43,751 nucleotides of DNA from an uncultured archaeon. GTDB lineage: Archaea > EX4484-52 > JAADEF01. The translations under genes and the position numbers were made by a program. The notes under the pieces were generated by a model. The model saw only the letters and a list, made by a program, of their open reading frames with translations. It was not told the DNA's origin and searched no databases. The stretch covers positions 7,161 through 50,911 of the forward strand of contig CAYOWP010000008.1 in the NCBI GenBank assembly GCA_964407715.1. The letters run 5' to 3'. Positions 1 through 43,751 of this stretch are shown piece by piece; the stretch's first letter is position 1, and each line of letters begins with the position of its first letter.

Positions 1-787
1 AACATTAAATGGAAAATATGGAGTTTATCTATATTCTTCAAATAACAACCTTTTCTATAACAATATCTTTAATAACACAAATAACTTTTATTTTTATTCT
101 TCATCAAATCAATGGAACACATCTCTTCAACTTGGCCCAAACATAGTAGATAGACCTTTCATAGGAGGTAATGTATATGCTACTCCTTCAGGAAATGGTT
201 ACTCAGAAACTTGCAGCGATGCGAATCATGATGGTATATGTGATTCCCCATATACAATAGCATCTGGAAACATAGATTATTATCCTTTGGCATTATCAAA
301 AACATATCCTTTGAATCCAAAAATCTATGTGGGAGAGCAATTGGCATGGAAGTATGATGGTTTCTTTAATGAAAGTTCAAATGCAGATATAACCTCTTAC
401 ATTTTGGGTTATATTAACAATAAATGCTTTGGTATAGTACCTTGCATAATTCCAATAAGATATAAAGCGGATTCACGTGGAGGATTTAGTCTTCTTATAA
501 ATATATTTGGACCTACTAAGGGTTACAAAGTAAGAATAAAGAATGTATATTTTGAGAAAGCAGGCATAAAGAACATAACAATCTATAGTAAAGATTATAA
601 GAAGGTATGTTATACTAACCTCTCTAAAGTATATGTTTTACCTCCTGGAAAAGTAAACATTTTTAGAATACCTTGCGATATACTATGCGATAATATAAAA
701 GATATAATAGTAGAGACCACATGTGGAGTAAAGGATAAGCTATCTAATCATCCTGTTAGAAAAAAGATTTTGTGGTGTTTGGAATAA
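1..787 (+). CDS. 5'-truncated surface protein with NosD/CASH-type beta-helix C-terminal motif
   Basis: Frame of ORF 287..787 is open back to position 2 and reads ...GVYLYSSNNNLFYNNIFNN...IGGNVYATPSGNGYSETCSDANHDGICDSPYTIASGNIDYYPL..., the typical end of NosD/CASH domains in archaeal surface proteins. The TTG start at 287 is therefore not the true start. Confidence 0.75.
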   Translation, partial: TLNGKYGVYLYSSNNNLFYNNIFNNTNNFYFYSSSNQWNTSLQLGPNIVDRPFIGGNVYATPSGNGYSETCSDANHDGICDSPYTIASGNIDYYPLALSKTYPLNPKIYVGEQLAWKYDGFFNESSNADITSYILGYINNKCFGIVPCIIPIRYKADSRGGFSLLINIFGPTKGYKVRIKNVYFEKAGIKNITIYSKDYKKVCYTNLSKVYVLPPGKVNIFRIPCDILCDNIKDIIVETTCGVKDKLSNHPVRKKILWCLE

Positions 788-890
788 TGCAGCATGCTAA
801 CCTTTGTTAAGGTTAGCTGCTTCCTAAACGCTCAAAAAGGTCAGCTGTTGTGATATGCTCTCTTAAAGAGGTTATGTTTCCCGTTAACCA
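788..890 (+). repeat. Palindromic repeat element, left-truncated copy of the long variant
   Basis: TGCAGCATGCTAACC..AGGTTAGCTGC..AGGTCAGCTG..TTCCCGTTAACCA, followed by an AT-rich linker and a TGGTTA remnant at 911-916. Confidence 0.9.
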
Positions 891-7002: not shown

Positions 7003-7272
7003 ATGTTGAGGCTTTTACTAAATATAGTGGGATTTGTGTTATCATATTATAGAATTGTTGAGAGATTATTTAAGAGAATAAAAAAGATATTGATTTCATT
7101 TTTGATTTCTTATGCATTATTTATTGTTGGTATTTTATTAATATGCGAGGGACTTGTTGTGTGGATAGCCAAGATATATAATGCGAATATTGAATGTATC
7201 TCTATTTTAATAGGACTCCTTTTAGTGATTCTTAGCATGGCTCTTATATGGTTCGGAAAGAAAACTAAATAA
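7003..7272 (+). CDS. Small two-TM membrane protein, YqjE/holin-X-like
   Basis: 89 aa with two hydrophobic segments, 6 bp downstream of the DUF883-like gene, GAGGT upstream. Family assignment is from context and topology only. Confidence 0.5.
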   Translation: MLRLLLNIVGFVLSYYRIVERLFKRIKKILISFLISYALFIVGILLICEGLVVWIAKIYNANIECISILIGLLLVILSMALIWFGKKTK

Positions 7273-7902
7273 GAAGGAATTGTTCTTTTTTATATTTTTC
7301 ATCACAACAATCAAGAGCACTATGAAAAACAATATTAAAAATGCAAAAATATAGATTCCTTTGAGATATTCAAATGATAATGTAGAGAGATAAAGCGCGG
7401 TAATGCTATACAGCAAGAGAAGATAATGAATAAATAATAAAGGTGAAGAGATTTTATTCTTTTTATTGTTAAACCTGTACTCTACGACCATGTGAATCCT
7501 ATAAAAGATGATTAGAGTGGTTATGGATAAAAATAAAAACAATATCTTCAGATAATTCCACAAATCCGCATCACGTATAGCGCTACCGTTGATATAGAAG
7601 AGGATATATTGATAGAGCAAGAGAAAATAATATGACATGCTTTTCCGTAATTGTAGAGTATATCTATTTGAATAGTATCTCATGAATATATATCCTATTG
7701 CTAATACAATACCATTTAAGATGATCAACACGCTAAATACATATATTTTATCCTTAACATAATACACTCCATATAACGAAAAAAGCAAGTTTAAGACTGT
7801 AAAGGTTATAGAGAGATATTTTATGCTTAAATTGTTAATGTATAAAAACTTATTCATAAACGCTTTACCTGCAACCTTTTCTCCCTTTTTCTTCTTACTC
7901 AT
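7222..7902 (-). CDS. Hypothetical multi-pass membrane protein
   Basis: 226-aa ORF with about 6 hydrophobic segments, overlapping the trm56 stop; 3' end overlaps the convergent gene by about 50 bp. Confidence 0.65.
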   Translation of the reverse strand: MSKKKKGEKVAGKAFMNKFLYINNLSIKYLSITFTVLNLLFSLYGVYYVKDKIYVFSVLIILNGIVLAIGYIFMRYYSNRYTLQLRKSMSYYFLLLYQYILFYINGSAIRDADLWNYLKILFLFLSITTLIIFYRIHMVVEYRFNNKKNKISSPLLFIHYLLLLYSITALYLSTLSFEYLKGIYIFAFLILFFIVLLIVVMKNIKKNNSFLFSFLSEPYKSHAKNH

Positions 7903-8440
7903 GTATAACTACCTTTTTCCCTTTTTCCATTGGAATGATCTCCATCTTTGGATTTTCATATTCCCTATTCAAATTATGATTGTTTAACTCATATACAAAA
8001 ATTGCAAATGCGCTTAACTCGGAGTGTGGCTGTGTTCCAACAGATACATTATAATCTGAAATCTCATATATATATCCTGGAACCTTTTCACTTCCTACGG
8101 TAACGCACACACCTTTCTTTTTTCCATTTTCTATTTCCTCTCTTAATTTTGGAATGACATCTTTATAATCAAGACCATACATGGTCAAATGTATTAATAA
8201 ATATTTTTCTTTTATTCTTTTTATAAATTCCTTGACATTTCTTATATATTTTATTTCATCAAATACCTTTCCCCATTTATATTCAATTTTCTTCAGATTT
8301 TCTTCTATGCTATCATCCTTATCACCGCTATACCACACATTTTTTATGCCCAGAATTCGTGCAGTTAAAAAAAGGTGTGTTGTCAATCTCTTATCCCTCT
8401 CCTTTCTATGCGATAATCTTAATAGAGCAAGTTTAACCAT
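7895..8440 (-). CDS. trm56: tRNA (cytidine(56)-2'-O)-methyltransferase (SPOUT)
   Basis: LRLSHRKERDKRLTTHLFLTAR, HLTMYG, VGSEKVP, DYNVSVGTQPHSE motifs of archaeal aTrm56. Confidence 0.95.
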   Translation of the reverse strand: MVKLALLRLSHRKERDKRLTTHLFLTARILGIKNVWYSGDKDDSIEENLKKIEYKWGKVFDEIKYIRNVKEFIKRIKEKYLLIHLTMYGLDYKDVIPKLREEIENGKKKGVCVTVGSEKVPGYIYEISDYNVSVGTQPHSELSAFAIFVYELNNHNLNREYENPKMEIIPMEKGKKVVIHE

Positions 8441-8518
8441 AATAAGAATTAATGAAATCCATAATATTTAAAAATCTAATTTTATAGGCATTATTCAATA
8501 AGTTTCTCTTTAGAAAGA

Positions 8519-9464
8519 TGGTTAACGGGAAGATATCACTATCATGAAGGTTTTGCGGCATGGTAACCTCATCAAAAGGTTAGCTGCTGCAATGTGCTTT
8601 GGATATGGCTATGTTTCCCGTTAACAAAAAATAAAAAATGGTTAAGGGGAGGAAATCGCTAACATAAAGGTCTTGCAGCATGCTAATCCTCTAGAGAGGT
8701 TAGCTGCTTCAACACGCAGAACGAATAGGTTATGTTTCCCCTTAACCATTTTTATTTAAAATGGTTAACGGGAAGATATCACTATCATGAAGGTTTTGCG
8801 GCATGGTATCCTCATCAAAAGGTTAGCTGCTTCAAGACGCTTTCTCTATAAGGTATGTTTCCCCTTAACCAATTATTTTAAAAAAATAAAAGATGGTTAA
8901 CGGGAAGATATCACTATCATGAAGGTTTTGCGGCATGCTAACCTTTTTTTGAGGTTAGCTGCTTCAATATGCTGAATAAAAGAGGTAAGCTTTCCGTTAA
9001 CCATTTTATCTCAAAATAAAATTTGGTTAACGGGAGAAAATCCATTTCATAACCATATTGCAGTATGCTAACCTCATGTAAGGGCTATCTGCTGCAATGT
9101 GCTTTGGATATGGCTATGCTTACCGTTAACCATTTTCATTAAAAGAATTTGGTTAACAGGAAGATATCGCTATCATAAAAGGTATTAGAGCATGTTAACC
9201 TTTTTTTGAGGTTAGCTGCTTCAAGATGCTTTTTGATATGGCTATGCTTCCCGTTAACCAATTATTTTAAAAAATAAAAGATGGTTAACGGGAAGAAATC
9301 GCTACTACTAAAGGTTTTGCATCATGAGCACCTCTCGTGAAGGGTTAGCTGCTTCAATATGCTGAATAAAAGAGGTATGCTTCCCGTTAACCATTTTATC
9401 TCAAAATAAAAAATGGTTAACGGGAAGTATATATCTTACCAAAGGCTTAAAGCATGCTAACCTT
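8519..9464 (+). repeat. Tandem array 1 of ~110-bp palindromic elements (7 full + 1 half copy)
   Basis: Copies at 8519-8627, 8639-8748, 8762-8871, 8894-9003, 9024-9132, 9150-9260, 9282-9393 and a left half at 9414-9464. Full copies are bounded by TGGTTAACGGGAA/TTCCCGTTAACCA-like ends and separated by 11-22 bp AT-rich linkers. Confidence 0.95.
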
Positions 9465-9471
9465 GCAATTT

Positions 9472-10341
9472 TTATGCTTTTTTCCATATAATGTAAAGTA
9501 ATAGAGAACAAACAATCACCAATATATATGTTGAAATCCAGCTTTTTTCAATGATTTTCACTGTTGGTAATGAGGTATAATCTTCTTGAGATGAATCCTT
9601 TAAATAACTACCTGTAAGGTTATCTTGATTTGTTCCATAGGAAGATTTGAGAGTCTGATCAAAGAATTCAGCATTACTTTCATTGCTAACATTACCCTCA
9701 ATGCTCTCATTTCCTTCGCGTTGGTGTGATGCATCTTTTCTACCTTTCTTCTCTAATTTACCCTCATGCGATGATGTTAAATTCTCTTCAGATTCTTGAG
9801 AGGTTTGAATGGATGACTGCGATAAAGGAGATTGTTGGATTGGAGGAAGATAAGCATTTAGATATACATTGAAATCATAATGTATGGCTGGAGAGATTCT
9901 TGGCACCACTTCTCCATTTGAGATTTCATTAGAGATTAGCGGATAAATATCTATGGAAACCTTTTTTTTCATGTTATGAGAGGATGGAGAATAATACTCA
10001 AAGAGAACATAAACCTCTTTATATTTTTTGATTTTATTTCCTAAAACCAATACTACATCCTTACCTGCAGATGTGAAAAATTGAGAATCCAATACACGTC
10101 CATGTTCATCAATCAAAGATACTTTTAAGTTGTTATCTGAATTTTTGTTATCTATCTTTATTGAATACATATATTTATCATAGGCCATATCTAAGATAAC
10201 TGGAATTATCCTTTTTTCTCCATATCCAAGAGCTATGTTATGTCTATGCACAATATATGCAATATTATAACCATAACTTAACATAGCAAAACAAGTAAAC
10301 ATTAAAAAAATCAAAACTATAAATTTAATGCTTTTATTCAT
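9472..10341 (-). CDS. Secreted/membrane-anchored hypothetical protein
   Basis: Likely start MNKSIKFIVLIFLMF (ATG at 10341, GGTGA SD upstream) giving a signal peptide; low-complexity S/Q/E stalk and C-terminal TM ending WKKA. Confidence 0.75.
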   Translation of the reverse strand: MNKSIKFIVLIFLMFTCFAMLSYGYNIAYIVHRHNIALGYGEKRIIPVILDMAYDKYMYSIKIDNKNSDNNLKVSLIDEHGRVLDSQFFTSAGKDVVLVLGNKIKKYKEVYVLFEYYSPSSHNMKKKVSIDIYPLISNEISNGEVVPRISPAIHYDFNVYLNAYLPPIQQSPLSQSSIQTSQESEENLTSSHEGKLEKKGRKDASHQREGNESIEGNVSNESNAEFFDQTLKSSYGTNQDNLTGSYLKDSSQEDYTSLPTVKIIEKSWISTYILVIVCSLLLYIIWKKA

Positions 10342-10358
10342 TATATCACCACTAAACC

Positions 10359-13300
10359 TTAATATGACGCATTCACCATTATCCATATGGTTCCGCTATA
10401 TACTCCGCTATACACTGGAGGAATATCCAAAAATAGTGTGAGATTTACCCAATCACCAGCATACATGGCACTTAATATTTGCCTGTACTCATAACTTAAC
10501 TTATTATCCATATCGCTCCAACATGATTGTGCTGAGGAAGGAGTTGGATAATCCTCAACCCTACCAAGACATCTTGTAATATTCCATACAGGTATTTCAT
10601 ATCCTGGTGTAGAGGAGGTAAGATTTTCTCCTTTTATCCATAGACCTCCGTTACCATCTGCTGAATCTGGAGAGAGTTTAATCTCTGTGGTATTTGCAGC
10701 TTTAATCATAGAAGTAGAGGGATCTGCTACGGTTACAGGAGGAGTAATATAGTTTTGAGTAGCGTCTTGAGGAGGCAAATACCAGTAAGTAATGTTTTCA
10801 GGCTCAACGCTCAATAACAGAACATATCCTATATATACCTCTGCATTTTCTGTTGAATTGGTCATTCCAAGACTGGAATTAAACCATACCGAGACATTCC
10901 ATTCACTTCCATATTCTCCTGTTGCATTAACCAAAAATGAGATATTGCATGTTTGATTTGGCTGCATGTTTGCTAAGCACAATCTTGGATTTGGTTGGCC
11001 ATCATTTATATAGAACGGCTGCGCGCCTATTGTGGTAGAGATTATATAGCTCTCATTGTATATAGCAGTTGCATTAACATCTCCACAACCACCATACTTA
11101 CATGTTACTGTAGCATTAATATAGAAGTTATCGTATCTGGATACATATGTGGTTGTTTCTGGATCTGGGAATATTAACTCGACCCATAATACGCCCAATG
11201 TCTCATTAATGTATACTGTGTTTCTACTTTCTGATATGTTGGTTTCATACCACAGTTCTGGTTCAGAATTGATTTTACATACGATATCATAATATGATCC
11301 TTTAACATACTTGTTTTCATCAACAAACCAATTAAGCGTTGCTATTCCTGAGGAATCTGTCAAAGAAGATCCAAGGTATTCTGTATATGTTGAGTTTTCA
11401 ACATAAAAACTCACATTATAGTTTGCGATTCCTTGTTCATTGACATAATCCTTAACACTACATTTTATTTGCACCGTATTATTGATATAGACAGAACTTC
11501 CGTTATATGGATATGTTACATTTACATCTGCCTTGCTCCAATATTCAACCATAACCTCATCATGACCTCTCTTATAATATGGCGCAGATGTATTGACCTC
11601 TATGAGATGATATCCAAGAGGTGCATTAGATGGAATGGTATATGTGAAGTTCTCTTGAGAGCCAATTTGAGTTCCATTATCAGCCCATACCACACTCTCT
11701 GGGGTAATTGTTTCACCTGTATCATCCTTTGTAGTGGAATTAAACCAATAACTTTGCCCGCGATACAATTTTGACCCTTCAAGTGGAGATAGGATTGTTG
11801 TATTCAAAGCTCCCATAATCACAATTATTATGGTGATAGATGAAGTCTCTGAGTATGCCTCGTAATATTTATCTGGATCATCATCTATCATAGCTGTGAG
11901 TTTGTGATATCCAACCTCTGTTGTGGATGCATCCCATGTGAAATTAGCATAGCAGTTGTTGTTTTTATCTGTATATGCAGAGCCAAGGTAATATCCAGGA
12001 GTTACATTGTCATAGTAGTCAACTTTATATCCATCAATACATGCCCATGTATCATAGTCACTTACATTGGTAATGAGATAGATTATTGACCTATTTACCT
12101 CTTGTCCATCTTGTGGAGAAATCCAATCCACTCTGCTAAATCCCCATACTGAGAAGTTCAAATATGAGAGTGTATTATTCACATTTCCTGCTGTATCATT
12201 AGCATATAACTTCACATAATGTACACCAACCAACCATGAATAATTAAGCGTGATGGTGTGGTTTGTCCAGTTATTAACATGTCCAGGAACATACACAAAG
12301 TACATATTTGGTGAAGTAGTATTTATTTCATACCACGAGTAGTTTATTTCTTCATCCCATAATCCGTAGAGAAGTATGCTTTCATTTCTGAAAACCTTAT
12401 CTGTATAGCTCACATTTAAGCCATAAAGATTATTGACAATATGTGGTGGAACAGCATCTCCACTCACGACAGTGTTAAGTGTGGCAGACTTATTTCTAGG
12501 ATATGAGGCATTATACATCAAAGTGGAGTTATCCAATATCTCACATGTCATTGTTTCTTGACCTTCTGTATAATCAGTATAATTCCATGTTGCTATTCCA
12601 TTGCTATCTGTGTAGTTAACACCTAATAGATGAGTTTCATTATAAAATCTTACCATATACCCCTCTATTGGTGAAGAACTATTGGCATCTATCACTTTAC
12701 ATGAAATAATGGTTGAGTTTCCAACATACATGCTTGATGGGTTTAAGGTTATAGATGATATTTTAGCCCATCCCCATACCTCAAATATTGTGTATGATGT
12801 TGAGTTGATATTTCCTGAGGTATCATTGGCATATTGCTTCCATGCTATATAGCCAGGCGAATATGTTACTGGATATGTATATGTAAAGTTAGCCCATGCA
12901 TCCTTTTGATGTGATAAATACATCGCGGAGATATTTTCAAATGTTCCTGAAACATTCATCTCTAAGATAGCATAATCCAATTGATAGTTATCATGCCAAT
13001 ATACGTCCATCTCTATTGATTCACCTTTATGTATTAAACTTGTATTTTGAAGCACAAGCGTATAGTTTGGATAAACAGATTCCTTTGTAAAGATAGTGAA
13101 TGATTTCTCATCACTACTTGGATCAGCTTTATAGAATAGAGTTTCGTTATCAGAGATATTGCATTTCAATGTCTCATAACCTGGGGTAGTATCCATATAA
13201 ATCCATGAAGCATATCCACTTGAGTTTGTATAGTTTACGCCCAATAGATGTGTGCTGTTATAGAAATATACAGCATAACCTTCTATTGGTGAAGGAGGAG

Positions 13301-16300
13301 AAGCACTCAAATCTTTTACTTGACAATGAATCTCCACATAATCTCCAACACCAATCTCACTTGCATTTATATATCCATTTGTTATGGATGCCAAACCATA
13401 GACAGGCAATGTTAGATACCATAATGATGAATTCATGTTTCCTGCAACATCCGATGCATAGATTTTCACTACATGATTGCCCAATAACCATAAAGGTCCA
13501 GTATCAATAGTATAGTTTGTCCAGTTATATGGATTCGGAGATGGCAATGTAATGGTATAATTGATTAATGTGGATGCAGTGGAGTTATACTCAATTATAG
13601 CATTAGAGATTTCTTCATCCCATCTTGCATATGCAAGAACATCCTCTCCACGAATGATATAACTTACATTTAATCCATAAGTATTGTTATATAAATCAGG
13701 AGGATCATTATCCTGAGCCAAAATCCTGAATGTTGATATATCTCTTTCCCCAACACCAGAACCAACAACCTTAAAAGTAACTTGTCTTTCATCAGGAGTA
13801 GCATTTGTTAAGTTTAGGATAAAGTAGAATGTTACCTTTCCTCCAGGATCTTCTTTACCATCTAATGCAGAGGTATTCCATTCCAATATATTATTTTCAA
13901 ACTTTCCACCTATTCTATCAGAGGTATCTGTAGAGTTCCTATACCATATGTCATTATACTTAATAATCCATTTTGAACTATCAAGATTCTCATAACTTAC
14001 ATTTGTTTCATTTATCCACCATATAGCAGAATCAGAACTTACATTGACATCTATCTCAATTCTATATATCTCATCAACATACATTATAAAGGTATCATTC
14101 AAACCTTCCTTTTCTAAATCCAATGTAGATGTTCTTGGATTCAAAGAGTTTGTGATGTTATATACACGTATTGATGTGATGTTTAGCTTTAACTCTCCTG
14201 TTGAGATATTGAACTCATCAGTATTTGTAATTAATCCATAGATGCTTTGCAAGATATTGCCTTTTTTATTCGCGATATCAACCTTAACTCTATATACTCC
14301 TTTAGGATAAAGATTGGTGTTGAATGGTGAGGCATTCCAAATAGATGCAAACTCAAATGAGTCATGAGGAGAAAGGAATCTTAAAGTATCTGTAGACGAA
14401 TCATTAATAATTGTTTCTATTGTTACCCATCCTGATGTTGTGTTTTGTTGCACATATGCAACCAAATAATAATGCATAGAAGAGTTACCATGATTTATCA
14501 CCACAGAACCCTGATTAAATTCCTCTAAGATATACTTCTTTGTAGAATTATAACCATAGCTTATTCTATTACTTATAGCACCGAAAATATTTGTCTCTCT
14601 ATCATTAGATAATTGTTCATAATATGCAAATACAGAATTATTACATTCTAAGCTATATCCAGCATCTCCAGCACCAAAGAGCATATGGCCAGGATATGGA
14701 GATTCCAAGTTTCCTACTGTCTTACTATCTACTACTTGTCCGAGAGAATTCTTAAGATCACATTTCGTGAATGAGTAAGGCACAGCAACAGCAATATACT
14801 CAAAATCTACTGGGAAGTAATATTTGCTACTTAATTCCCATCCTGGAAGGAAAGTAGTTCCATCGGTTCCATCACCATCAGCTATTGAGTTTACACCTAC
14901 AGGTTTATTGGCTTTCACATATACTGCAGGTCCAGCACCCTGAGATCCTAAACCGGTCTCTCTATACGTTTCTCCTCTATTTAAAATTATAGGTGTAGCA
15001 TTTGTGGTTCCATCACTCTTATAATACCATACATAAGTATTATCTTCTAATGCAGATATCATCAAATACTCACTTGCAACACCATACCACTCCTTACTTG
15101 CAGGATACATTATATAAGCATCATTTCCTGTAGCATCATGAAATGCCAATACAGGCGCATCACATTCCAATATTCCTGCATTTCCATCTGTGATATCTGT
15201 GTTTCTTGTTACAGCCTGACCTTTTTGTACAGTGAAGCTATCAACAAGAGATGTGGAATCATAAATCTTACAATTTGCATCCTTCCATGGTGATAGCACA
15301 TAGAATCTATCTGATCCACGATCCATTCTATATGTGAATCTCTTTCCAGCCATTGCAATGCTTGGAAATGCATCTCCATCATCATGTACGCTTGCTATGA
15401 ATACAGGAACATCATGCGCTATAGGTGAGTTTTGAGACATTTCAGTTGAGGATATAAGTTCAGGTTGTTGTTCTGTAAGTGCATGTACTGTGGAATCCAC
15501 AATCATATATCCATCCTTAAATGCTATTGCATAAGCATCGCTTCCATTGTGAACAGAAGATACAGGATAATGTATTGTTATGTTTTGATCATATGACGTA
15601 ATCTCTATTTCAGAGGATGCATAGTTCTTTACGCTTGCATGCGAGTCATAGTACATGAATAATGTTGCATTTCCATTTTGCGGTATTTCAGGAACATATA
15701 CATAAATATATGTCTTTTTGCGATTGCATGATCCTGGAATAATATAGAAAGATGTATTTTCCTCTTCTTGTGAACTTGTATTATAATAAGTAAATGCTAA
15801 ACTACGGCAATGTTCATCTAATTTGCCAGCATCTATTAATTCTTTGGTATCTACAACAATCAACTCATAACTTCCATTTAACTGAAATGGATGTAGATTC
15901 TCAAGAACTATTTTTCTCTTATAATATCTATCCCTATAATACCAACTCTTATTAGATATTAAATATACATCTGTGTTTGGAGGATAACTGCTATTGTCTG
16001 TTTTAACATAAACTTGGGCATAGGAGTTCAACTTAAAGATGTTTGTTTGGGAGGTATTTTTACTTCCTGTGATATCTTCTGTAGTAACATAATAATGATA
16101 TGTTCCATAATCCCAAAGGTTTGTGAGGTTATATGAGTAGATATCTCCATAGATGTTTGTCATGTTATATGAATATTGCGAGCCATTCGGATACTCTATA
16201 TAAAGTATAGCATTTGCTATGCCATCATCATCTGTTAGGTTAGCATAGATGGATATATTACCTCCATAAGAGATTTCTTGTGGTTCATGCCATAAAGCAT

Positions 16301-19300
16301 TTATTTTTGGTTTTAGGCCAATATCTAAATAGCTTTGGTTATCTGAGTATAGCAAGTATGAGGCATCATTTCCAAAGAAGGATACATTAATAAGATGCAA
16401 CCCAGGTTGTGCATCTAAAGGAATATCATAAGTGATAGATGCTATTCCTTGGCTATTTGTTATGGAAGATCCTATGAAGATTCCTTCAGTTTCATCATAG
16501 AATCTTAATTGCTCATTTGATACAGGATTGCCTAAGTCATTCAAAAGCTTTGCCTCTATAATTACACTCTCTCCTACACTTGCATTTGTATCATTGAATG
16601 TGATGTTTATTACCTGAGTTTTTGCAAATACCTCTATCTGGAGATTCTTGAAATCTTCTTGTCCTTGATCAGATGCTGATTTTAATGTAACTGTTTGCAA
16701 TCCTAAGGATGCTGAGGATGTAATGTTTACTGTAATATTGTTCCAGAAGATATGGTATGGCTCTAAGAGAGATGTCTTCTCCGAGAGATTACCAGAGGCA
16801 TTTATCCATCCACTTGGCAATGTATAATTTAACCATGCATTAGTTGCATTTATGTCTGCGGTGTTGTTTATATAGGATTCAAATAAGTATCCGCCACTTC
16901 CTCTTATTACACGTGTTGGATATGTATAAGGAGTTATTACTAAGATGCCTTGATATCTTACCTCTAATGTTTGTGGTGCTAATTCTTCCCATTTCTTGTA
17001 TTCATCTCCAATGTTCACATATTGAAGTGTAGCATTTATGATATAATCGCCTTGTTGTGTTGATTGTGTATAATTTATGGAAAAGTTGGCATAGGCATAG
17101 GTATTTCCAGAGATGTTTCCTAGATAGCATATATTTTGCTGGTTCTCTTGTCCTGGAAGAGCACATGTACAATTTAATGTTGGGTCACAATTGATAGTGA
17201 CGTTAACATCACTGATATTTACGCTCCATGCATTATACAAAGTAAAGTTATAATATGCCAATTTATTTCCACCTATATATATTCTTGTTGGTTGTAATGT
17301 TGAGGATACGTTATTTCTTAAATCATGAACTATAATGTACTCTGTACCATTGGAACGTGTCTTACCATTCTCTAATGTCATGGTTACATTCCAATAAAAC
17401 ATATAATTTCCTTGTGCTGTTAATGGTATAGGATATCCATTAGAAGAATTGTCATATATAGCATAGCACTCGCTGTCATATGGTATATTACCACAGGAAT
17501 ATATTTCATTAAGTGGACCAAATCCTGCATAGCTCTTATCTTTTTTGACGAGATCCAACTCCACTTTTGCATCTATTGCAGTATTGTTATATGCCTTTAC
17601 TGTGATATTGATTAAGGCAATATTATCACCAACCTCATATTCTTTTACATTTCCTTTATAAATATTTTCATGCTCCAATTTTGTCATTCTAAGTTCTGAT
17701 TCTATTATCTCAAAGATATAGTAATCTTCCAAGCGATTTCCAAATGAATCTCTTATAGGATTCATATTCTCATCAACAAATGCAGCGTAGACTCTATATC
17801 TTCCTGGTGCATGATCAGAGGTATCCCACCCTCCTTCAGATTTCCATAATTGTGTAAGATTGATTTCCTCTCCTGGAAGTAAGGTACGCAAATTACCATC
17901 TGCTTTGTCATTGATAATTACACCTCCTGGAAACACTAAACTCCACCCTGTAGAGGTTTCTTCTTCAACAATCATATATAGATATCCTTTCAATGTAGTG
18001 TTTCCTCTATTCTTTAGGTTATTGTACACATCTTCCTCTGTTCTATTTATCTGAACTATGCTATACTCGAATGCATTTCTGAAATGTTTTATGCCATAGA
18101 GATTTGTCTCATAGGAACCTGCTCTTTCAAAATATGCAAAAAATGGAGAGGTACAATTAATCATAGTACCTCCAGGAAGATTTCCAAATCTCACAAATCC
18201 TGGATTAGGATATGAGGTATTGGATGCGCTGGCATGTTGTGATGCGGCTAAAGTGTTATTGGCATAGTAAGCGTAACATGTAGCATCTGCATCTTGTGTT
18301 GCAATAGCAACATACTCTGCATCTGCAGGAAGAATATACTCATCCTCAAGCTCATGCTTAGGTAAGAAAGTTGTTCCTTCTGTACCATCACCATCAGCAT
18401 ATGCTAATGCATATACTGGCTTATCTGCTTTGATATACATCGCAGGAGCATTTCCTTGCTGACCTAAAGAGCCTGAGGTATAGCTATCTCCAGCATTTGT
18501 TAATGTTATTGTTGTTGGTGTGTTTTGATCACTTCTATAGATTGTGATATGCGTATTTGCCTTTAATGCAGTAATAACTAAATTGTTAGATGGTACTCCA
18601 TACCATTCTTTATTTGGTGGAAATACAGTGAAGAAATCATAGTTTGATTCTGCTTTTCTATGTAAGAGTATTGGTTTTGTTGAATTAACATATATTGCAA
18701 CACCATCTGAGAAATCATAAGTAAAGGTATTTGCTTGTTCATAATTAAGCGATAGAGATCCAACTTTATTATATGTTCCTCCAGAAATGCTATAAAACTC
18801 TATTATATTGTCATCTCCGAAAGACAATACTGTAAGGTATTCTGTACCTCTTATAGCATAGCTTATAAATTCCTTACCCAATGCAATCTTAGGTGTAAGT
18901 GCATCACCATTTCCGCTACTTAAAGTAGTAGTGGAAAGTGGCTTATTGCTTTTGAGAGCGCTTCCCAAACTCAAATATGATGAAGAAATAGTTGCTATTT
19001 GTTGTTTATCAACTGTGGAAGAGTATCCTCCTATTTCAAATTCAGTATTGTTATAGTATGCAGATATTTGAAGGTTAGCACTAGCAATATCTTCATCAAG
19101 CACATAATATAGAGATTTCTTGCATAGATAGCTAAACACGGCACTTTTGTTTTGTTTGTCTTCTGCTGAGGGATTGCCATAATATATGTAGAGGTATGTT
19201 TTGTCATGGGAATTTATTATAGGCACTTGAGTCCATATAAGAGTATTGGATGTATTACATCCACTTTCAATCCAATAGGGTATCTCTTCATAAGTAGAAC

Positions 19301-22300
19301 CTATAACTTGTGGATCTCCAACTGTAGTGGACATTGAATAATCTCCATATGGCAGTCCATATATTAAAGTTGCATTACTTATTGCCAAATAGCCATTGTC
19401 TTCTGTTGTGTGATAACCATCATATCCTGCTTCTTCTTCCATTTGATATTCAAAACTTCCTAATTTTACATTTCTTATTCTTTCATGAAGATTATCTCCT
19501 CCATTTTCACTTAATACCTTTGCAACCACTGCAGGAAAAGCATCTCTAAAGCTTAAGGTATATAATGTCCAATCATCTCCTGTAGGTTGATTATGGGATC
19601 TAATGTCGCATTGCATTCTAAATGTATCAATCTTAAAGGACATGGGTTGCATGGCTATATATCCTATATCTTCATAGGTATGTGATGTATCAGAGGTATC
19701 CGTCTCCTCCAATTTAACTTCAAAACTTCCTGTAAGTATATTATCGACCCTTGTTTTTACAGGATCAGCTTCATTGTATGTCAAGGTTTGGGTAAGAACA
19801 ACAGGTTTAGAAGAGAAAACTTTTTGGAATGTAACAGTGGAATATGAGGAATCAACTGTTGATGTTCCAACCTCAATATATTTTCCTCCTACTAACCATT
19901 GTCCAGGTAGCATTGCGATATAAGATGCATTTTCATTCCCATGCACACCATCAAGAGCAACAGATTCCTCTATTTTTGCAGTAAATTCATTTGTGGATAT
20001 GCTTAATATTCTAACAAATGCTTGATCAGCTTCATTTTCAGAATTCAAAGATGCTATTATTATAGGAGATTGCGAATATGCATGCATAAAGGAAATAGTG
20101 GTATTGGTACTATTCAAAATGAAGGTTCTTGCCTCTCCTATTACTTTATTGAATACAGCAGAATAATTCTGCTTGTTAAGAGCATTTTTATTTCCATAGT
20201 ACATATAGAGTGTCTTAGTTTTGTGAGCTCCAATATATGGAATCTTAATCCATATAATTGCAGTACCTGCCTCTTTATTTATGCTCTCTACCCAATAATC
20301 CAAGAACGTATCATTATGATAAGGATTTTCTACACGAGTCTCAAATATTCTTATATCAGAACCATCTTCATTCATATTTGCAACTATTTCTTTGTTATTT
20401 ATTGTAATCTTTACACTCCTATCTGTAAATGAGACTGAGTTAGTGTTTGTGATATTCAATTCCACAAGATAAATGTTTTTTATAACTGTAATTCTTAGAT
20501 CCTCACATGAGTTTTTCATTTTTCCTTGAGAAATTAATTGTTTAGTATTTAGTGTGATGTTTATTACATCAAAACATACAGATTCATCATTAGGATTATA
20601 AAGCTCTATAGGTAATCTATATTTCCAGGATGTATTGAACCAATCATAGTCATAATTGCTCAAATATACCTTTTCAAAGTTTCTATACTTATCTTTTTCT
20701 GTTTTAACTGAAAACTCAGCTTTAACATCAACAACAAAATATGCAAAGTCTGATTGGTTATCTATGCCATCAGTGTTGTTTACCCAAACATAAAACTTAA
20801 ACTTATCCGCATGCCAAGATGAAAAGTTATATTCATAGAGATCATTGCCTATATAGCTCATAGAAGCACCATCTACTATTACATCATTTGTTGAGTTATA
20901 TACATAAATTAAGGCAGTATCTACTCCCACTTCATCAGTAATATTCGCTCTTAACCTTATAATTTGATGATTTCCTTGCCAATATGGTAAAGCATAAATC
21001 TTATTTATTTGTGGCACAGAAGATACTTTATATTGAGAAGATGCATTTGATTTTTCAAGAAACTCTGGCCAAGAACCATTAAACATAGCATATACAGTAT
21101 GGTATCCAAGTATTTCATCTTTTGGTATTGTGTATGTAATCTCAGCATAGCCATTTTCATCTGTCAATGCCGTTCCATAATATTTATTTGCGGTTGCATC
21201 ATAAAATGTGATATTATGGGCGGATAAAGGCTCATTTAAGTCATTTACAAGTTTTGCTCTTAAAGTAATATTTCTTCCTTGTCCTTGTACCGATGGGATA
21301 ATAGTGAAATCTATAATATATGTTCGTATGAAGACAGTAACATTTATTTCTTGAGAATATGCATCTTCTATATATTGATTTGTAGAATTTACCTTTATTC
21401 TTATAGTATAATTACCTTCTTGTTTTGGTGTGATTACCCAAGAAATGTTGCACTTGCATGATGATGTATTCTTTTTGACTTCTTCTAAGGAACATGTATG
21501 TGGGTTAGTGGTTGAGAAGATACTAGAAGGTTTCATAATAACAAATGAAGGTATGAGTACGCGATATCCTAATTGGATTTTATCAATGATATCTGATTCA
21601 TTTCCATAAGTTGATGTAAACTCTACTTTATATTGCACATATTTATCTGGAGGCGCCTCAATAACAGTATTATTATCCATCAAATACCACTCACTCCATG
21701 CACTACCATCAGGTGAGGTTCTTACATAGAAGGTTGTATCACTATATTGCATATCTTTTCCATACCAATAAAATTTGTTAAATTGATATTCTGCTGTACC
21801 AATATTGAATACCTTGGATATATATATTCCGCTGTTTTCTATCTTCCTTTTTTCCTCACTTCCTACATAACTCTTAAAAGTTGCATTCTCAGCATATTTC
21901 CTAACATATATCAAATCATATCTTGCAGGATTTGATGATGAGTCAGCATCATTAAATCCACATAAACTACCTGAAACATAGGAAAGAGTATTTGAGGTGG
22001 AATATCCATTATTCAAATCTATTATATATTGATATCCATCACGCAATGTGATTCTATAGTGATGGAAAGTTGTATCTGTTTGCGAACCTGATGGATAACA
22101 AACACTTGTATCAATACATTGAGATCCAGAACCATCATCTGATATGAAGTATATGTTTCCTATCTTTAATCCAGAATCAAAATCACTTCTAGTTTCCTCT
22201 TCTCTCATCCAGAAATCTACAAATATATCTGCAGACATACTTTTTATAGTACATGCACCTAATATTTCATTACCACCATTAACTTTCATAACTCCTGTAT

Positions 22301-25300
22301 TGTACACAGGATCAGTTTCAACTGTAGTATCTGGATCATCATTCCACTTACTCGTATCTAATGAACCACTTTCAAAATCATCAAAGAAAATAAATACCTC
22401 ATCTGGATTTTCATCGCTTAATGTATCGTTATTACCATAATACATATACACTGTTGTATTTGAATTTGCCTTCAATAAAGGAACTTTTATCCATATAATG
22501 GTATTGGAGGTATCGCATCCACTCTCAATCCAATAAGGTATTGGTTTCTCTTGTTTTGATGTTTCATTATAGTATGTGAATCTTATATCCTGACATGTTG
22601 TGTTCATCTTGCCTTGGCTGATTAATGTTTGTGTATCTATTGTTAGATTTATCTGGAAGTCTTTAAGGTCCTCATTGTTTGGATTTGTAATATTTATGGG
22701 TTTACGATATAGCCAATCATAGTCATACCAAGATTTTAATGAATTATTCATTAAGAATAGCTCACCATGTTTAACGCTAACAGTAACATTTTCTCTATAA
22801 GAGGCATTATAGAAATCTTCACTACTATCATCTATCAAGAATTTTAATGGAGCTGCCAATGAGAAATATTGTGACCAAGCATAAGGAGAGTTATAGACTC
22901 TTTCATAGTCTATTTGAATCTTATACAATTTTGGAGATGTTTTATTGTCTGTTGTATTCATCTGTACCATAAGTTGTAGATATCTCTCTGAAGGAAGATC
23001 AGGATAGGTGCTATTTGTTATTACTTTCCATGAGTTCCATGATAATTTATCATTTGATGTTCTTGCATACAATGTTAATGATGTATTTTGTGGAATTGTT
23101 GCTATGTATGTGATATTTGTATAGTTTATGGATATGGAGAAGAAATCTAAAGTTGTGATATATGTTCCGTTTTCATGATAGGTAAGGTCATTTTCTTCTT
23201 CTTCTCCCATATAGCTATCAAAGGTCATGTTCTCAGCATATTTCCTAACATATATCAAATCATATCTTGCAGGATTTGATGATGAGTCAGCATCATTAAA
23301 TCCACATAAACTACCTGAAACATAGGAAAGAGTATTTGAGGTGGAATATCCATTATTCAAATCTATTATATATTGATATCCATCACGCAATGTGATTCTA
23401 TAGTGATGGAAAGTTGTATCTGTTTGCGAACCTGATGGATAACAAACACTTGTATCAATACATTGAGATCCAGAACCATCATCTGATATGAAGTATATGT
23501 TTCCTATCTTTAATCCAGAATCAAAATCACTTCTAGTTTCCTCTTCTCTCATCCAGAAATCTACAAATATATCTGCAGACATACTTTTTATAGTACATGC
23601 ACCTAATATTTCATTACCACCATTAACTTTCATAACTCCTGTATTGTACACAGGATCAGTTTCAACTGTAGTATCTGGATCATCATTCCACTTACTCGTA
23701 TCTAATGAACCACTTTCAAAATCATCAAAGAAAATAAATACCTCATCTGGATTTTCATCGCTTAATGTATCGTTATTACCATAATACATATACACTGTTG
23801 TATTTGAATTTGCCTTCAATAAAGGAACTTTTATCCATATAATGGTATTGGAGGTATCGCATCCACTCTCAATCCAATAAGGTATTGGTTTCTCTTGTTT
23901 TGATGTTTCATTATAGTATGTGAATCTTATATCCTGACATGTTGTGTTCATCTTGCCTTGGCTGATTAATGTTTGTGTATCTATTGTTAGATTTATCTGG
24001 AAGTCTTTAAGGTCCTCATTGTTTGGATTTGTAATATTTATGGGTTTACGATATAGCCAATCACTATATCCACTATACCAATCTGTAGTGAGTGGTGCAA
24101 GTTTTAGATAGTCTTCAGGGGAAGCATCAATAATTGTTATGTTTTCCATGTAATCGTAGTATATAAAGTCATTATAATCAGATAGGATTTTACTTCCATT
24201 ATCATATAATGAGAATCCTCTTGCTTTGACGGTGCTATTTAGATAAAATGACTCGTACCTATAAAGTTTCATGTTATTTGGAGGAAATGTAATTGTAACA
24301 TTAAAGCTGCCAACATACTCTGTGGAGTTATAAATTAATATGGTATCGTTATGATAATACTTAGTCACGTAAATATAATCAAAATATGCTGTTTGAGATG
24401 ATGAATCAGCATCATTAACTATGAAAACATATCCATCTCTGATAGGAGGTGCATTTGTGGAGGAAGTTGTGGTGTCATCTTCATAATTATACCACTCAAG
24501 TGAATTATTTTTCATAATTAATTTATAAGTTCTCCATGATGATGTTGACACTCCGCTTCCTCCGCCAGAAATAGTATTACTCCACCAATCTGGATAGTGA
24601 ATATACATAACATTTCCGCCTGGATAATCATCTGTTGCTATGGTTATATCTCCGGAGGCATTTCCTACTGCTACACCACCATCAAAATCTTCAGATGTTT
24701 GTGCCATCATTGAAATTCCAACCACAAAGGGCATGTAGAAATATTGAGCTGTTCTAACATGCTCTATAGAATCTCCTCCAGTACCTTTGAACATACCATC
24801 TGATACTGTATATGAGCCATCAACATCTACCCATTTTGATGAATCTAAAGATGTTCCAGGAAAGTCATCAAAAAAATCAAATGTTTTATAGCCATCGCTT
24901 TCATCAGCAGCATCGGGATTATAGTGATAAATGAAAAGAGTTATATTACCATTAGCAGATAAATTTTGCACTCTTACCCATACATATCCTTTTTTGTTGA
25001 CGCTATCCACATATTCTATCCAATGAGATAACAAAGTTTCTGTTTGGGTTGTTTCATTAAACTGGGTTATTCTTATGTCGCTTAAATCTGAATTTGCGAG
25101 ATCCCATTTAAAGTTTGTTGAGTTTAGGATGAGAAGTACAGAGTTGTTTTTTAAACTATAGTTATTTGTATTTTTTAGGTAATATATGCTCCTATACTCC
25201 CAAGATTCATTCCACCAACCACTATAGAAAGGATCAAAATAGAAGAGTTTAAAGGAATATTGTGGTCGTGATTTCATTGTTATTGTAATTGGATATTCTA

Positions 25301-28625: not shown

Positions 28626-28703
28626 AACAATATATTAATATATCAATATTTTTAAAACTATCGCTTATAATCACATGCCAGGCATTGTCCAATAATTCTT
28701 TAT

Positions 28704-28767
28704 TGTTAAGCGGAAACTTAACGCGCAAATAGCACTTTTTTGATATGGCTACGTCTCCAGTTAACCA
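28704..28767 (+). repeat. Degenerate, internally deleted copy of the palindromic element
   Basis: TGTTAAGCGGAAA at left and TTTTTGATATGGCTACGTCTCCAGTTAACCA at right, matching the right arm of the copy ending at 9260. Confidence 0.65.
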
Positions 28768-28787: not shown

Positions 28788-30419
28788 TTATTTTTCATAT
28801 GCTCTCTTAATGTATTCTGTCAAGGTTCTGTGCGTATTGAACAAGCTACCCACAACCTTCAAAGCATTTCTTCCTATCTGAAGATATTCATGCTCTCTTT
28901 CCCTATACAACTTTAATATCTCCTCTAACTTATCATAGAAATCCTTTATGTCTTCCTTTTCATTAAATTCCTCAGGATTTAGTATGTTCTTTCCAAAAAA
29001 CCATCCATTATATCCATCAACTATAGCCTCTAAGGTACCGCCATCTTTAGATGAGAGTACAGGTACCGCATTTAAAGATGCTCTCATCCATGATGTTCCG
29101 CAGGCTTCATATGGAGGAATAGGAGAATGAATAAATAGATCTCCTCCACTTACTGCGATCCTTTCATAAGGTTTACCATTCTTAAGAAGAATCGCAAGTT
29201 TTGAGTGATTTAATGTTGGCATTATATCAAGGAGATATTTGAGTATCTTCTTTCCACTGTTATCATGCGGATGCAATGTACCGCTTACCAAAACCTGCAC
29301 TTTGTATCTCTTGGAGATTTCTTCTATTCTTTCAATATCCTTGAAGACAATATCGTTTCTTTTATAGCCAGTTATTCTCCTTCTTAAAACCAATAAGATA
29401 CTTGTTTTATCAAACCTCTTGTTATATATGGCTTCAGAGTTTATTACATTTATTAGTTTTTTCTTTATAATCTGTTTAGCTTCTTTAAGCTCTTCGAGAT
29501 CTATGTTACCAGCATACACGAATTTCTCAGGATGATGGAACCATCTTGGAATGTATTTATCATATAAAATCCTCATGGGTTGTTCAATCCATTTTGTATG
29601 AACTCCATTTGTGATATAATCTATATCTTCATCATGAAACATTTTCTTTATAATTAGCCAATGCTTCCAAGATACGCAATTTTTATATGAGGAAAGTTTT
29701 AATAGCACAAGCGTTGTATGAAGTTTCTCTGGAGAAATACTTTTTATGATATCAGGAACTTTATAGTACTTCTCAACATGTTCATATTCATACACTTCAT
29801 GACCATGAGGCAGGGGGGTGTGAGATGTAAATATTATTTTATTTTTTGTTTTTTCAATGTTTTGATATCTCTTAAGTAATTCAATAGCAAGAAATACGCA
29901 ATGCGATTCATTGAGATGAAATTTTTTGATAGGGAGATTAAGCTCATCCACTATTTTTAATGTTCCAAGACCTAAAAGTATCCTCTTTAGTATAAATTCT
30001 TCTTTATCCCTATCAATGTACACCCTATCACTTAACCTTCTTATTTTTTCATCATTTTCTTCTATATCCGTATCTATAAAATAGACCTCTACATCATCAC
30101 TTAAATTATATTTCCATGCCTGAAACCATATTTTCATGTTTTCCAAATCTATGCAGAATTTTCTTTTTATTTTTATAAAGAATTCCTCAGGGTCAAAAGG
30201 GTCTTCTTCAAATATGATTTCTCCGTTTTGTATTCTATTTTTTACATATCCTTTTTTATATACCAAAGTGAACCCTGTCATTGGATATCTTATATCTCTT
30301 GCTGCTGAGAACAACCCACCTGCTAAGATTCCCAAACCCCCTGCATAGTTTCTTAAATCACTAATTAAGACTTCCATAGAAACAAAGCCAATCCTTGATT
30401 TCTCATTCTCCATAATCAT
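28788..30419 (-). CDS. glgP: Alpha-glucan (glycogen/maltodextrin) phosphorylase-like protein, GT35, short form
   Basis: YAGGLGILAG, HLNESH, FTSHTP, ITNGVH, RRITGYKR, EACGTSWMRASLN. Likely start at ATG 30419 or 30413 rather than GTG 30482. PLP lysine is replaced by Arg (see findings). Confidence 0.85.
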   Translation of the reverse strand: MIMENEKSRIGFVSMEVLISDLRNYAGGLGILAGGLFSAARDIRYPMTGFTLVYKKGYVKNRIQNGEIIFEEDPFDPEEFFIKIKRKFCIDLENMKIWFQAWKYNLSDDVEVYFIDTDIEENDEKIRRLSDRVYIDRDKEEFILKRILLGLGTLKIVDELNLPIKKFHLNESHCVFLAIELLKRYQNIEKTKNKIIFTSHTPLPHGHEVYEYEHVEKYYKVPDIIKSISPEKLHTTLVLLKLSSYKNCVSWKHWLIIKKMFHDEDIDYITNGVHTKWIEQPMRILYDKYIPRWFHHPEKFVYAGNIDLEELKEAKQIIKKKLINVINSEAIYNKRFDKTSILLVLRRRITGYKRNDIVFKDIERIEEISKRYKVQVLVSGTLHPHDNSGKKILKYLLDIMPTLNHSKLAILLKNGKPYERIAVSGGDLFIHSPIPPYEACGTSWMRASLNAVPVLSSKDGGTLEAIVDGYNGWFFGKNILNPEEFNEKEDIKDFYDKLEEILKLYREREHEYLQIGRNALKVVGSLFNTHRTLTEYIKRAYEK

Positions 30420-30540
30420 AAATAAAAATAATATATTAGGATTAATATAAAGATTTTCCTTTCCTCTAAAAAGCATAACCACTTTGATGCACTTTTTGTT
30501 TGAGGTGCGTCATGTTAATCAAAAATTTTTATTGGGAATG

Positions 30541-30840
30541 TGGTTAACGCGAGGAATTCGCTATCACAAGCGAATCACAGCATGGTAACCTTTAAAAGAG
30601 TTTAGCTGTTGTTATATGCCCTCTTAAGAGGCTATGTTTCCCCTTAACCACTTTTTATTTAAAATAAAATCTGGTTAACGGGAAAAATCGCTTTTCAAGG
30701 CACATTAGAGCATGCTAACCCTTTACAAGAGGTTAGCTGCTTCAAAACCGCTTGAAGAGGTTAGCTGCTCTGATATGTCTCATTGATAATGTAATCTTCC
30801 CGTTAACCAATTCTCTGAAGTTTTACAGCATGCTAACCTT
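30541..30840 (+). repeat. Tandem array 2 of palindromic elements (2 full + fragment)
   Basis: Copies 30541-30650 (short) and 30672-30809 (long), plus a left-arm fragment TTTTACAGCATGCTAACC at about 30820-30840. Confidence 0.93.
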
Positions 30841-30862
30841 TTTTCTTTTTTAAAGACAGTTC

Positions 30863-30877
30863 AAAGATTTTTAATAT
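30863..30877 (+). promoter_or_regulatory. Putative BRE/TATA box of pelota
   Basis: AAAGATTTTTAATAT about 26-40 bp upstream of ATG 30903, with no SD; consistent with a leaderless transcript. Confidence 0.5.
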
Positions 30878-30902
30878 TATCTCTACATAATATTTCATCT
30901 TT

Positions 30903-32756: not shown

Positions 32757-33436
32757 TGGTTAACGCGAAAATATCGCTTTTCAAGACACATTAGAGCATG
32801 CTAACCCTTTACCAGAGGTTAGCTGCTCTGATATGGCTCATTGATAAGGTATTCTTCCCCTTAACCCTATTTTATTTATCCACTGAATGGTTAACGGGAA
32901 GAAATCGCTATTATAAAGGTTTTGAGCATGCTAACCTATTTAAAAGGTTAGCTGCTCTCTAACCGCTTGAAGAGGTTAGATGCTGTGATATGCTCTCTTG
33001 AGAGGCTATGCTGCCCCTTAACCATTTTTATTTAATCTGGTTAACGGGAAGATATCACCATCATAAGCACATTGGAGTATAGTAACCCTTTGTGAAGGTT
33101 AGCTGTTGTTATATGCTCTCTTCGGAAGGTAATTTTCCCCTTAACCATATTTTATTTATTCAATGAAATGGTTAACGGGAGGATATCATCAATACAAGGA
33201 GCTTGCAGCATGCTAACCATCTCCAAAAGGTTAGCTGCTTCAAAACCGCTCGGAGAGTTTAGCTTCTCTGATATGCTATTGATAATGTATTCTTCCCGTT
33301 AACCATTTTTATTTATTCAATGAAATGGTTAACGGGAGGAAATCGCTATCATAAAGGTTTTGCAGCATGCTAATCTCTTCTGCGGGTTAGCTGCTCCAAT
33401 ACGCTGGATAAAAGGGATTATGTTTTCCGTTAACCA
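32757..33436 (+). repeat. Tandem array 3 of palindromic elements (5 full copies)
   Basis: Copies 32757-32866 (short), 32888-33024 (long), 33038-33147 (short), 33169-33305 (long), 33326-33436 (short). Confidence 0.95.
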
Positions 33437-37425: not shown

Positions 37426-37449
37426 GCTTCCACTATTATTTTAAATATG

Positions 37450-37721: not shown

Positions 37722-37776
37722 AATAAATCCATAAGTTATAAATTTAAAAACTTTATTAAAATTCTTATAGAATTAT

Positions 37777-43450: not shown

Positions 43451-43751
43451 TTCACGTTAACAAAGTAATAAAAATTGGTTAACGGGAAGAAATCGCTATC
43501 ACAAGCACATTGCAGCATGGTAACCCAAAAGAGGTTAGATGCTCTTTAATCGCTTGAAGAGGTTAGATGCTATAATATGCTATTGATAAGGTATTCCTCC
43601 ACTTAACCATTCTTTATTATTTTTTAAATTGGTTAAGGGGAGAACATCACCAATACAAAGGTCTTACAGCATGCTAACCCTTTGTGAAGGTTAGCTGCTC
43701 TCTAACCGTTTGGAGAGGTTAGCTGCTGTGATATGCTATTGATAAGGAATG
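43451..43751 (+). repeat. Tandem array 4 of palindromic elements (runs off window end)
   Basis: Right-end remnant TTCACGTTAAC at 43451-43461, full long copy 43476-43609, second long copy from 43630 to the window end. Confidence 0.93.

Follow-up and report, generated by a model that had tools for sequence, protein, structure and literature searches.

What kind of element fills an intergenic region with palindromes stacked one behind another, and how it came to be there, is the question raised by a stretch of archaeal DNA of 43,751 nt (contig CAYOWP010000008.1 of an uncultured archaeon, positions 7,161 to 50,911; hereinafter the window), in which a tandem array of ~110-nt palindromic, non-coding units occupies positions 8519 to 9464. 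A preliminary description of the window regarded these units as an unrecognised family of alternating inverted repeats, comparable to the bacterial interspersed mosaic elements (BIMEs) of enterobacteria and the hairpin-forming repeat doublets (REPINs) of Pseudomonas, and spread or bound by a factor encoded elsewhere. Our analysis points in another direction: we put at about 65% the probability that the arrays consist of selfish, species-specific palindromic modules related to the cargo of MITEs (miniature inverted-repeat transposable elements) of the IS903 type, the modules being stacked head-to-tail, shuffled by recombination and under no structural constraint as they decay.

The earlier count of about 20 copies at six loci stands. 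Tandem Repeats Finder (TRF) calls an array at 8514-9432 with a period of ~132 and 7.2 copies, and an nhmmer model built from the copies detects 18 full or partial units in the window, to which reading of the sequence adds the fragments at 28703-28767, 30813-30840 and 43451-43463. When at most 2 mismatches are allowed, the window contains 35 matches to the unit terminus TGGTTAACGGGAA, as compared to 0.48 expected, and 0 of 100 shuffles attain that number; one of these matches (at 40421) falls inside an open reading frame (ORF) and is probably due to chance. All 22 units on the window's contig lie in one shared orientation.

The host is an archaeon, and an Rfam scan of the window places an archaeal signal recognition particle (SRP) RNA at 37449-37722. 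Its assembly comprises 898,521 bp in 16 contigs at ~32% G+C and is 92% complete. One contig (C9) duplicates the window over 43,696 bp at 100% identity in reverse complement (C8:7161-50856 versus C9:262-43957, with C8 being the contig of the window), which is probably an assembly or binning redundancy and, if left in, would inflate genome-wide counts by ~5%. It was accordingly dropped before all such counts, which refer to the remaining 854,509 bp in 15 non-redundant contigs, with ORFs of at least 70 amino acids (88% coding) serving as the gene proxy for location. On this basis the family comprises 337 non-overlapping copies, 273 of them full length, covering 36,582 nt, which amounts to 4.3% of the sequence and roughly one third of the DNA between genes. 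They group into 125 loci, each with 1-8 units, at a density of 394 units or 146 loci per Mb. Copies are present on all 16 contigs, so that the family cannot be put down to an artefact of the window's contig. As the proposal of a high-copy, non-coding intergenic element had it, 320 of the 337 copies lie outside the proxy genes, and the 8 copies scored as inside mostly fall in ORFs of 76-107 amino acids that are themselves made of repeats. Such open frames run through several arrays (C1:38478-38801, C3:51865-52173, C7:26036-26266 and others), and gene callers may annotate them as hypothetical proteins. Divergent gene gaps harbour 58 of the 116 placeable loci, as compared to 147 of 755 gaps genome-wide, while convergent gaps are under-represented (14 of 116 loci versus 145 of 755 gaps); divergent gaps are also the longest, with a median of 168 nt versus 9-17 nt.

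The 178 paired units include two size classes, of ~110 nt (100 units) and ~138 nt (69 units), with the long class bearing an extra inner hairpin of the form CTAACC-loop-GGTTAG. Every unit carries a 13-bp inner terminal inverted repeat. Palindromy is seen in the termini and in the inner GCAGCATGCTAACC/GGTTAGCTGCT stem, where conservation amounts to 85-99%, the termini alone reaching 90-99% as the best-kept part of the unit, and the middle arms are paired in only about 46% of cells. In terms of sequence, the termini and four GGTTARC motifs (85-99%) stand out against a middle conserved at 45-60%. The linkers are almost pure A/T, mostly 18-21 nt long and often self-complementary, and contain T-runs and TATA-like A/T tracts; in the window array, reading of the sequence finds the A/T tracts flanking a unit to be inverted copies of each other, such that there the palindrome extends into the linkers. 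Single units folded as DNA yield z-scores of -3.7 to -7.8, and the hairpin at the junction, made up of a unit's right end, the linker and the left end of the unit that follows, yields -10.4 and -5.0; as RNA, three example units have minimum free energies of -38 to -59 kcal/mol. Units and junctions thus fold strongly, in keeping with the initial recognition of whole-unit palindromes with an alternative hairpin at the junctions.

The relative orientation of the units emerged from a first, unoriented alignment. RNAalifold detects no structure in an unoriented alignment of 94 copies, which led to the finding that the copies mixed two orientations: several columns that should have paired showed identity instead of complementarity (A-A with T-T, G-G with C-C), the signature of one asymmetric element aligned both ways. 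Each copy was therefore flipped to its best fit with the rest and a new model was built. This oriented model separates the strands by a median of 34 bits, and after flipping conserved mismatches, to which each unit owes its orientation, are seen at columns 15-20/91-96 (A.G, A.A, T.T and G.G) and 8/103 (C.C). Across the genome, adjacent units share the same orientation in 159 of 194 pairs and are opposite in 35, with 18 more pairs including an unassigned unit; many of the opposite pairs fall within the composite MITEs discussed below. Hence, the alternating, BIME-like arrangement is not borne out, and the prevailing order is head-to-tail. A replication-strand bias was considered and set aside, the tendency of neighbouring arrays to share orientation (49 versus 35) being weak.

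The link to a known class of mobile DNA comes from a subset of loci. About 16 loci that resemble inverted unit pairs represent a homogeneous composite element of ~245 nt bounded by inverted copies of GGCATTGTCCAATAATTC, with 12 canonical copies showing a mean pairwise identity of 88%. Allowing at most 2 mismatches, we count 106 instances of this outer end in the assembly, as against 0-2 per genome in 41 relatives of the same order. The 18-bp end is found in the correct orientation on one or both sides of 54 of the 125 loci, as against 6 flanks in a wrong-orientation control. Elements bounded by it (n = 45) span 116-390 nt and contain 1-3 modules, and their 9-bp flanks match at 7 or more of 9 positions in 22 cases, 7 of them perfectly; with flanks displaced by 15 nt as a control, 0 of 45 do so. 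The outer ends, written GGCATTGTCC..., resemble the inverted repeat of IS903, which begins with GGC. When three of them are aligned with both ends of an annotated IS903B (locus L045; limits of 1,057 bp), which was reached by tblastn with the IS5-family transposase of a relative, 14 of the first 18 positions are invariant. Table 2 of PMC3281130 lists 9-bp direct repeats for IS903-group elements. The combination of IS903-like ends and 9-bp target duplications indicates DDE-type MITEs and, as judged from their termini and flanks, the outer-end-bounded elements are MITEs of the IS903 type. They share both features with the IS903-group MITEs of the IS5 family and are non-coding, intergenic and found in one species. 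The resemblance has its limits, in that the ends are confined to 54 of the 125 loci and window-type arrays are mostly bare modules; moreover, the host is an archaeon with no IS903-type transposase in its assembly, and no pair of outer ends in it encloses an ORF. The label of an unrecognised family therefore fails for the outer-end subfamily and holds for the TGG-type units, whose termini match nothing that we know of. The two subfamilies differ in these termini: TGGTTAA accounts for 338 of 462 in arrays lacking outer ends, and TTGTTAA for 75 of 100 in the bounded elements.

The preliminary description had noted no transposase, integrase or cas gene in the window, and a Pfam scan of 23 of its ORFs likewise recovered no mobilising gene, these ORFs being housekeeping, glycogen-metabolism or surface-protein genes or having no Pfam match. 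Extending the search to the assembly, we obtained 0 matches to Y1_Tnp (PF01797), a profile that matched 6 of 14 control genomes, and none to DDE_Tnp_1, OrfB_IS605, Transposase_mut, rve, DDE_3, DDE_Tnp_IS1595 or DDE_Tnp_1_2; DDE_Tnp_1_5 was also without a match, a weaker negative since its control matched a single genome below the cut-off, while for the other eight families control genomes matched above the family cut-off. Profile searches for these nine families hence yielded neither the expected HUH enzyme of the RAYT type nor a repeat-flanked transposase, a result that holds for the assembly and not for the genome as a whole, given that the former is incomplete and multi-copy insertion sequences (ISs) often go unassembled. 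The only tyrosine recombinase in the assembly (Phage_integrase, 286 amino acids, C1:72424-72912, minus strand) is assumed to be a housekeeping Xer-type enzyme. Repeated genomic segments of 0.7-1.1 kb were considered as a parent IS and rejected, being paralogous beta-helix/NosD-type surface proteins and their neighbours. Among the relatives, 22 of 41 possess IS5-family transposases, and the five such loci inspected have unrelated ends; a 17-mer resembling the outer end beside one of these transposases lies inside another ORF and was taken as chance.

The scan of related genomes put forward at the outset returned no homologue in the 41 relatives or in three public collections. Neither the unit terminus nor the outer end nor a 371-nt piece of the array rises above chance in the 41 same-order genomes. 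The unit pattern (terminus plus inner stem) has one match among the genome_contigs species representatives, in an unrelated bacterium and taken as chance, and 0 matches in IMG/VR viral contigs; in Joint Genome Institute (JGI) metagenomes it recovers two loci, both from the same species, with a further locus (L002) matching the pattern without a model match. The outer end shows 11 single, chance-level matches in viral contigs, none with a partner end or units. As the representative of the same genus is itself distant (54% protein identity in aTrm56), restriction to one species is unsurprising. For the same reason, and because the neighbouring gene differs, a repeat-free gap of 73 nt in that genome was rejected as an empty site.

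These observations bear on two readings that need no kinship with IS903. If units or arrays were structured non-coding RNA genes, or RNA-level hairpins serving as terminators, processing sites or small-RNA precursors, their strong folding and the T-runs and TATA-like tracts of their linkers would be accounted for, as would the slightly greater stability of the oriented strand as RNA (mean -1.1 kcal/mol; 153 versus 109 units). However, that asymmetry is small in view of a standard deviation of 5.9 and disappears once DNA parameters are used, and the copies lack covariation. Watson-Crick pairing within units is 0.692, as compared to 0.699 +/- 0.004 when right arms are swapped among units, with an equal outcome when outer, middle and inner stems are considered one by one; for the 11 short copies of the window, RNAalifold finds compensatory change in 1 of 30 pairs and a covariation term of +0.07; and G-U mismatches (401) are as frequent as A-C mismatches (367). 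The direction of neighbouring genes is equally uninformative, both for unit orientation in tandem contexts (62 same, 55 opposite) and for the more stable RNA strand (48 versus 50), and the convergent gaps in which terminators are expected are those that the family under-occupies. At gathering thresholds, Rfam 15 recovers only the SRP RNA and one tRNA, both elsewhere in the window, so that no known RNA family matches the repeats; the best sub-threshold matches in the array are generic hairpins, led by CopA, whose 33.5 bits fall short of a threshold of 60. Nothing indicates that structure is under selection or that neighbouring genes make use of the units, compensatory changes do not accompany the decay of individual copies, and we regard an RNA-level role as very unlikely. 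Still more improbable, to the point of being nearly discounted, is a system of repetitive extragenic palindromic (REP) or BIME type whose spread depends on a RAYT-type HUH (Y1) transposase with single-stranded hairpins as its substrate. Palindromic units, intergenic arrays and the strong junction hairpin do recall such systems. Nevertheless, the 92%-complete assembly offers no Y1_Tnp and no TnpB/OrfB, its units are ~110-138 nt long and follow one another directly instead of being short and alternating, and their bounded relatives carry 9-bp target duplications. HUH transposition makes no target duplications. The analogy with REP, BIME and REPIN-RAYT systems from which the study of this locus started finds no support.

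More serious competition comes from the bare arrays, several properties of which weigh against a descent from IS903-type MITEs. An outer end is lacking at 71 of the 125 loci, among them 43 of the 50 arrays that have at least three units, and the 126 flanks of bare loci show no excess of degenerate ends (8 versus 7 flanks at up to 6 mismatches); for most arrays, a MITE origin is thus something we infer from the sister subfamily. In 65 of 73 cases the closest relative of an array unit is found outside its own array; adjacent units are thus mostly not nearest kin, and the majority of arrays cannot be the product of recent tandem duplication. Since the subfamilies differ not only in termini but also in age (88% identity in the 12 composite MITEs versus a mean of 66% among array units), descent between them may have run in either direction. 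Finally, pure neutral decay does not predict the conservation of motifs and termini. One way to accommodate such facts is to regard the TGG-type units themselves as independent MITEs, with a transposase acting on the 13-bp termini and arrays arising by repeated adjacent insertion in a fixed orientation. The termini are indeed the best-kept part of the unit, array neighbours are mostly not nearest kin, and most loci have neither IS903-like ends nor remnants of them. On the other hand, inspection by eye of 22 bare arrays with intact termini revealed no target duplications, the unit flanks in the window array are inverted rather than direct repeats, truly solitary TGG units are few, and none of the nine transposase families is seen in the assembly, which together leave this possibility an unlikely one. 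Likewise unlikely, we think, is that the TGGTTAA modules constitute a separate element that stacks without a classical transposase, the IS903-type MITEs having merely captured a module; its spread would proceed by palindrome-driven template switching or recombination, or through a protein recognising paired GGTTARC sites. Such an element would account for the loci without ends, the lack of close kinship between array neighbours and the four conserved motifs and, if real, would amount to transposase-independent spread of long palindromes. A third proposal holds that the arrays are platforms for a DNA-binding protein, encoded by the host or the element, with four GGTTA(A/G)C sites arranged as two inverted pairs and a role in chromosome organisation or at the adjoining divergent promoters. 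The motifs are conserved while the rest of the unit drifts, GGTTAAC and GGTTAGC occur mainly within the elements (164 and 165 times, versus 29 and 14 times outside), and divergent, promoter-containing gaps are enriched. Yet these gaps are simply the longest and most tolerant, inheritance from transposition-competent or master copies would also conserve the motifs, no candidate protein is known and, with the family absent from all 41 relatives, the role would have to be a recent invention; we accordingly view this as quite improbable. Avoidance of GTTAAC as a restriction site was likewise considered and rejected, the 162 sites outside the elements being matched by 162.5 expected.

Kinship with IS903-type MITEs, the reading that we prefer, would have the history of the arrays unfold as follows. 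The hairpin-forming module of 110 or 138 nt is also the cargo of a MITE family in this genome, the TTGTTAA subfamily, holding 1-3 modules between outer repeats with 9-bp target duplications, having moved by cut-or-copy DDE transposition; the main array of the window itself opens with a degenerate copy of such an outer repeat. The enzyme would be an IS5/IS903-group transposase acting in trans, its gene residing on an element that is foreign, has been lost or escaped assembly. The TGGTTAA-type arrays would then have expanded where they lie, through unequal recombination between modules or replication slippage, and might persist through being tolerated on the promoter side of genes rather than through being used. 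Several observations support local amplification and recombination. Array units are 71% identical on average within the same array and 66% between arrays, and are thus old or fast-evolving; the best match of a unit is an array mate in 8 of 73 cases as compared to ~1.3 expected, and the relatedness of left and right halves is weakly correlated (r = 0.22). In the main array of the window, the linkers are near-identical between the third and sixth and between the fourth and seventh, giving a higher-order period of ~389 nt, and the linker-plus-half-unit segments 8953-9035 and 9343-9425 are 95% identical at that spacing. A second assembly of the same species has one array that is ~98 nt longer between flanks of ~99% identity. 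Four public DNA runs contain the locus, three of them from hydrothermal vents and none an RNA run; their contigs over 7200-10800 are fragmented inside the array, with the pieces from one run (X1) agreeing exactly with the window. One record each from two other runs (X2 and X4) joins 8620 to 8865, i.e., two units fewer, with the second part fitting at ~88%, which is a weak hint of a copy-number difference.

Set against known families, the elements described here recall the MJRE1-3 repeats of Methanocaldococcus jannaschii, described by Suyama, Lathe and Bork in 2005, which reportedly number more than 100 diverged, palindromic intergenic elements of ~100 nt in an AT-rich archaeal genome, with no mobilising enzyme identified. 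We know of no description of tandem head-to-tail arrays for them, and they are said to make up ~0.9% of their genome as against 4.3% here; the likeness concerns their description. The enterobacterial BIMEs and Pseudomonas REPINs share palindromic units, intergenic arrays with linkers and high copy number. REP units are short, alternate in orientation or pair up as inverted doublets, and co-occur with a Y1 transposase, differing on each count from the longer, head-to-tail units of this archaeon. BrickBuilt, a MITE of Porphyromonas gingivalis, is likewise species-specific and intergenic with a tandem interior of variable copy number between small inverted-repeat ends; as described in PMC4596501, its 23-nt repeat lacks spacers and it is present in 19 copies per genome, in contrast to 337 copies of a palindromic module of 110-138 nt with AT-rich linkers and mostly without MITE ends. 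Most likely, then, the repeats are a dense new family of familiar selfish DNA and not a new system.

Table 1. Repeat units and outer ends in the window (positions as in the window).
Feature	Position	Strand	Evidence	Remarks
Partial long unit (model positions 31-137)	783..890	+	nhmmer; terminus match 878-890	Begins just before the stop codon of ORF 2-787; overlap ~5 nt
Degenerate outer inverted repeat GGCATTATTCAATAAGTT, left edge of main array	8488..8505	+	Sequence read; flank scan	Agrees with the family outer end at 14/18 positions; 4 mismatches to the 17-mer
Main array: seven full short units, head-to-tail	8519..9393	+	TRF, nhmmer, sequence read	Linkers AT-rich, 11-22 nt
Units of the main array	8519-8627, 8639-8748, 8762-8871, 8894-9003, 9024-9132, 9150-9260, 9282-9393	+		
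Truncated eighth unit, left half only	9414..9466	+	Sequence read, nhmmer	Stops 6 nt short of the stop codon of ORF 9472-10386(-)
Solo left end: exact copy of the outer inverted repeat GGCATTGTCCAATAATTC	28681..28698	+	Sequence comparison	
Internally deleted TTG-type unit (TTGTTAAGCGGAA ... CTCCAGTTAACCA)	28703..28767	+	Terminus match, sequence read	Adjoins the solo outer end
Short unit 30541-30650, long unit 30672-30809, left-inner-stem fragment 30813-30840	30541..30840	+	nhmmer, sequence read	In a divergent intergenic region
Five same-orientation units, short and long by turns: 32757-32867, 32888-33024, 33038-33147, 33169-33305, 33326-33436	32757..33436	+		
Right-terminus fragment 43451-43463, then long units 43476-43609 and 43630-43749	43451..43749	+		Last unit interrupted by the window end

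The genes around the arrays of the window include a minus-strand ORF of 5,197 amino acids at 10359-25952, with five DUF2341 domains, a match to the H-type lectin domain and sub-threshold matches to bacterial Ig-like (Big) domains, whose product is probably a giant surface or adhesion protein. It contains an exact internal duplication of 834 bp (21886-22719 = 23230-24063, corresponding to C8:29046-29879 = 30390-31223). A multi-copy paralogous gene pair, comprising a 110-amino-acid ORF with no Pfam match followed by a beta-helix/NosD-type protein of 560-920 amino acids, is found at C2:111155-113072, C14:18515-21389, C3:38750-39507 and C10:34968-36023 with 84-93% DNA identity, and the window ORF 2-787 is the C-terminal part of one such beta-helix/NosD-type protein. 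Genes of a glycogen type lie around the arrays at 28788-30482 and 39422-43439, and the set comprises a glycosyltransferase/phosphorylase-like ORF, an amylo-alpha-1,6-glucosidase (GDE_C), a GT4/starch-synthase-like ORF and a GH57 enzyme.

For genomics in practice, short-read assemblies break at every array, and in annotation the arrays could be mistaken for RNA genes, CRISPR-like arrays or a REP system. For the biology of mobile elements, IS903-type ends without a transposase raise the question of where the enzyme comes from, be it a virus, an IS missing from the assembly, or a cell acting as host or partner. As to scale, a census of 8,220 archaeal genomes gives top MITE densities of 146, 105 and 100 per Mb and has MITEs taking up at most 1.23% of a genome (PMC11602168). 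In the very small archaeal genome studied here, roughly one third of the non-coding DNA is explained by the present family, and so dense a load of selfish DNA is unusual, the more so as the genome is otherwise streamlined.

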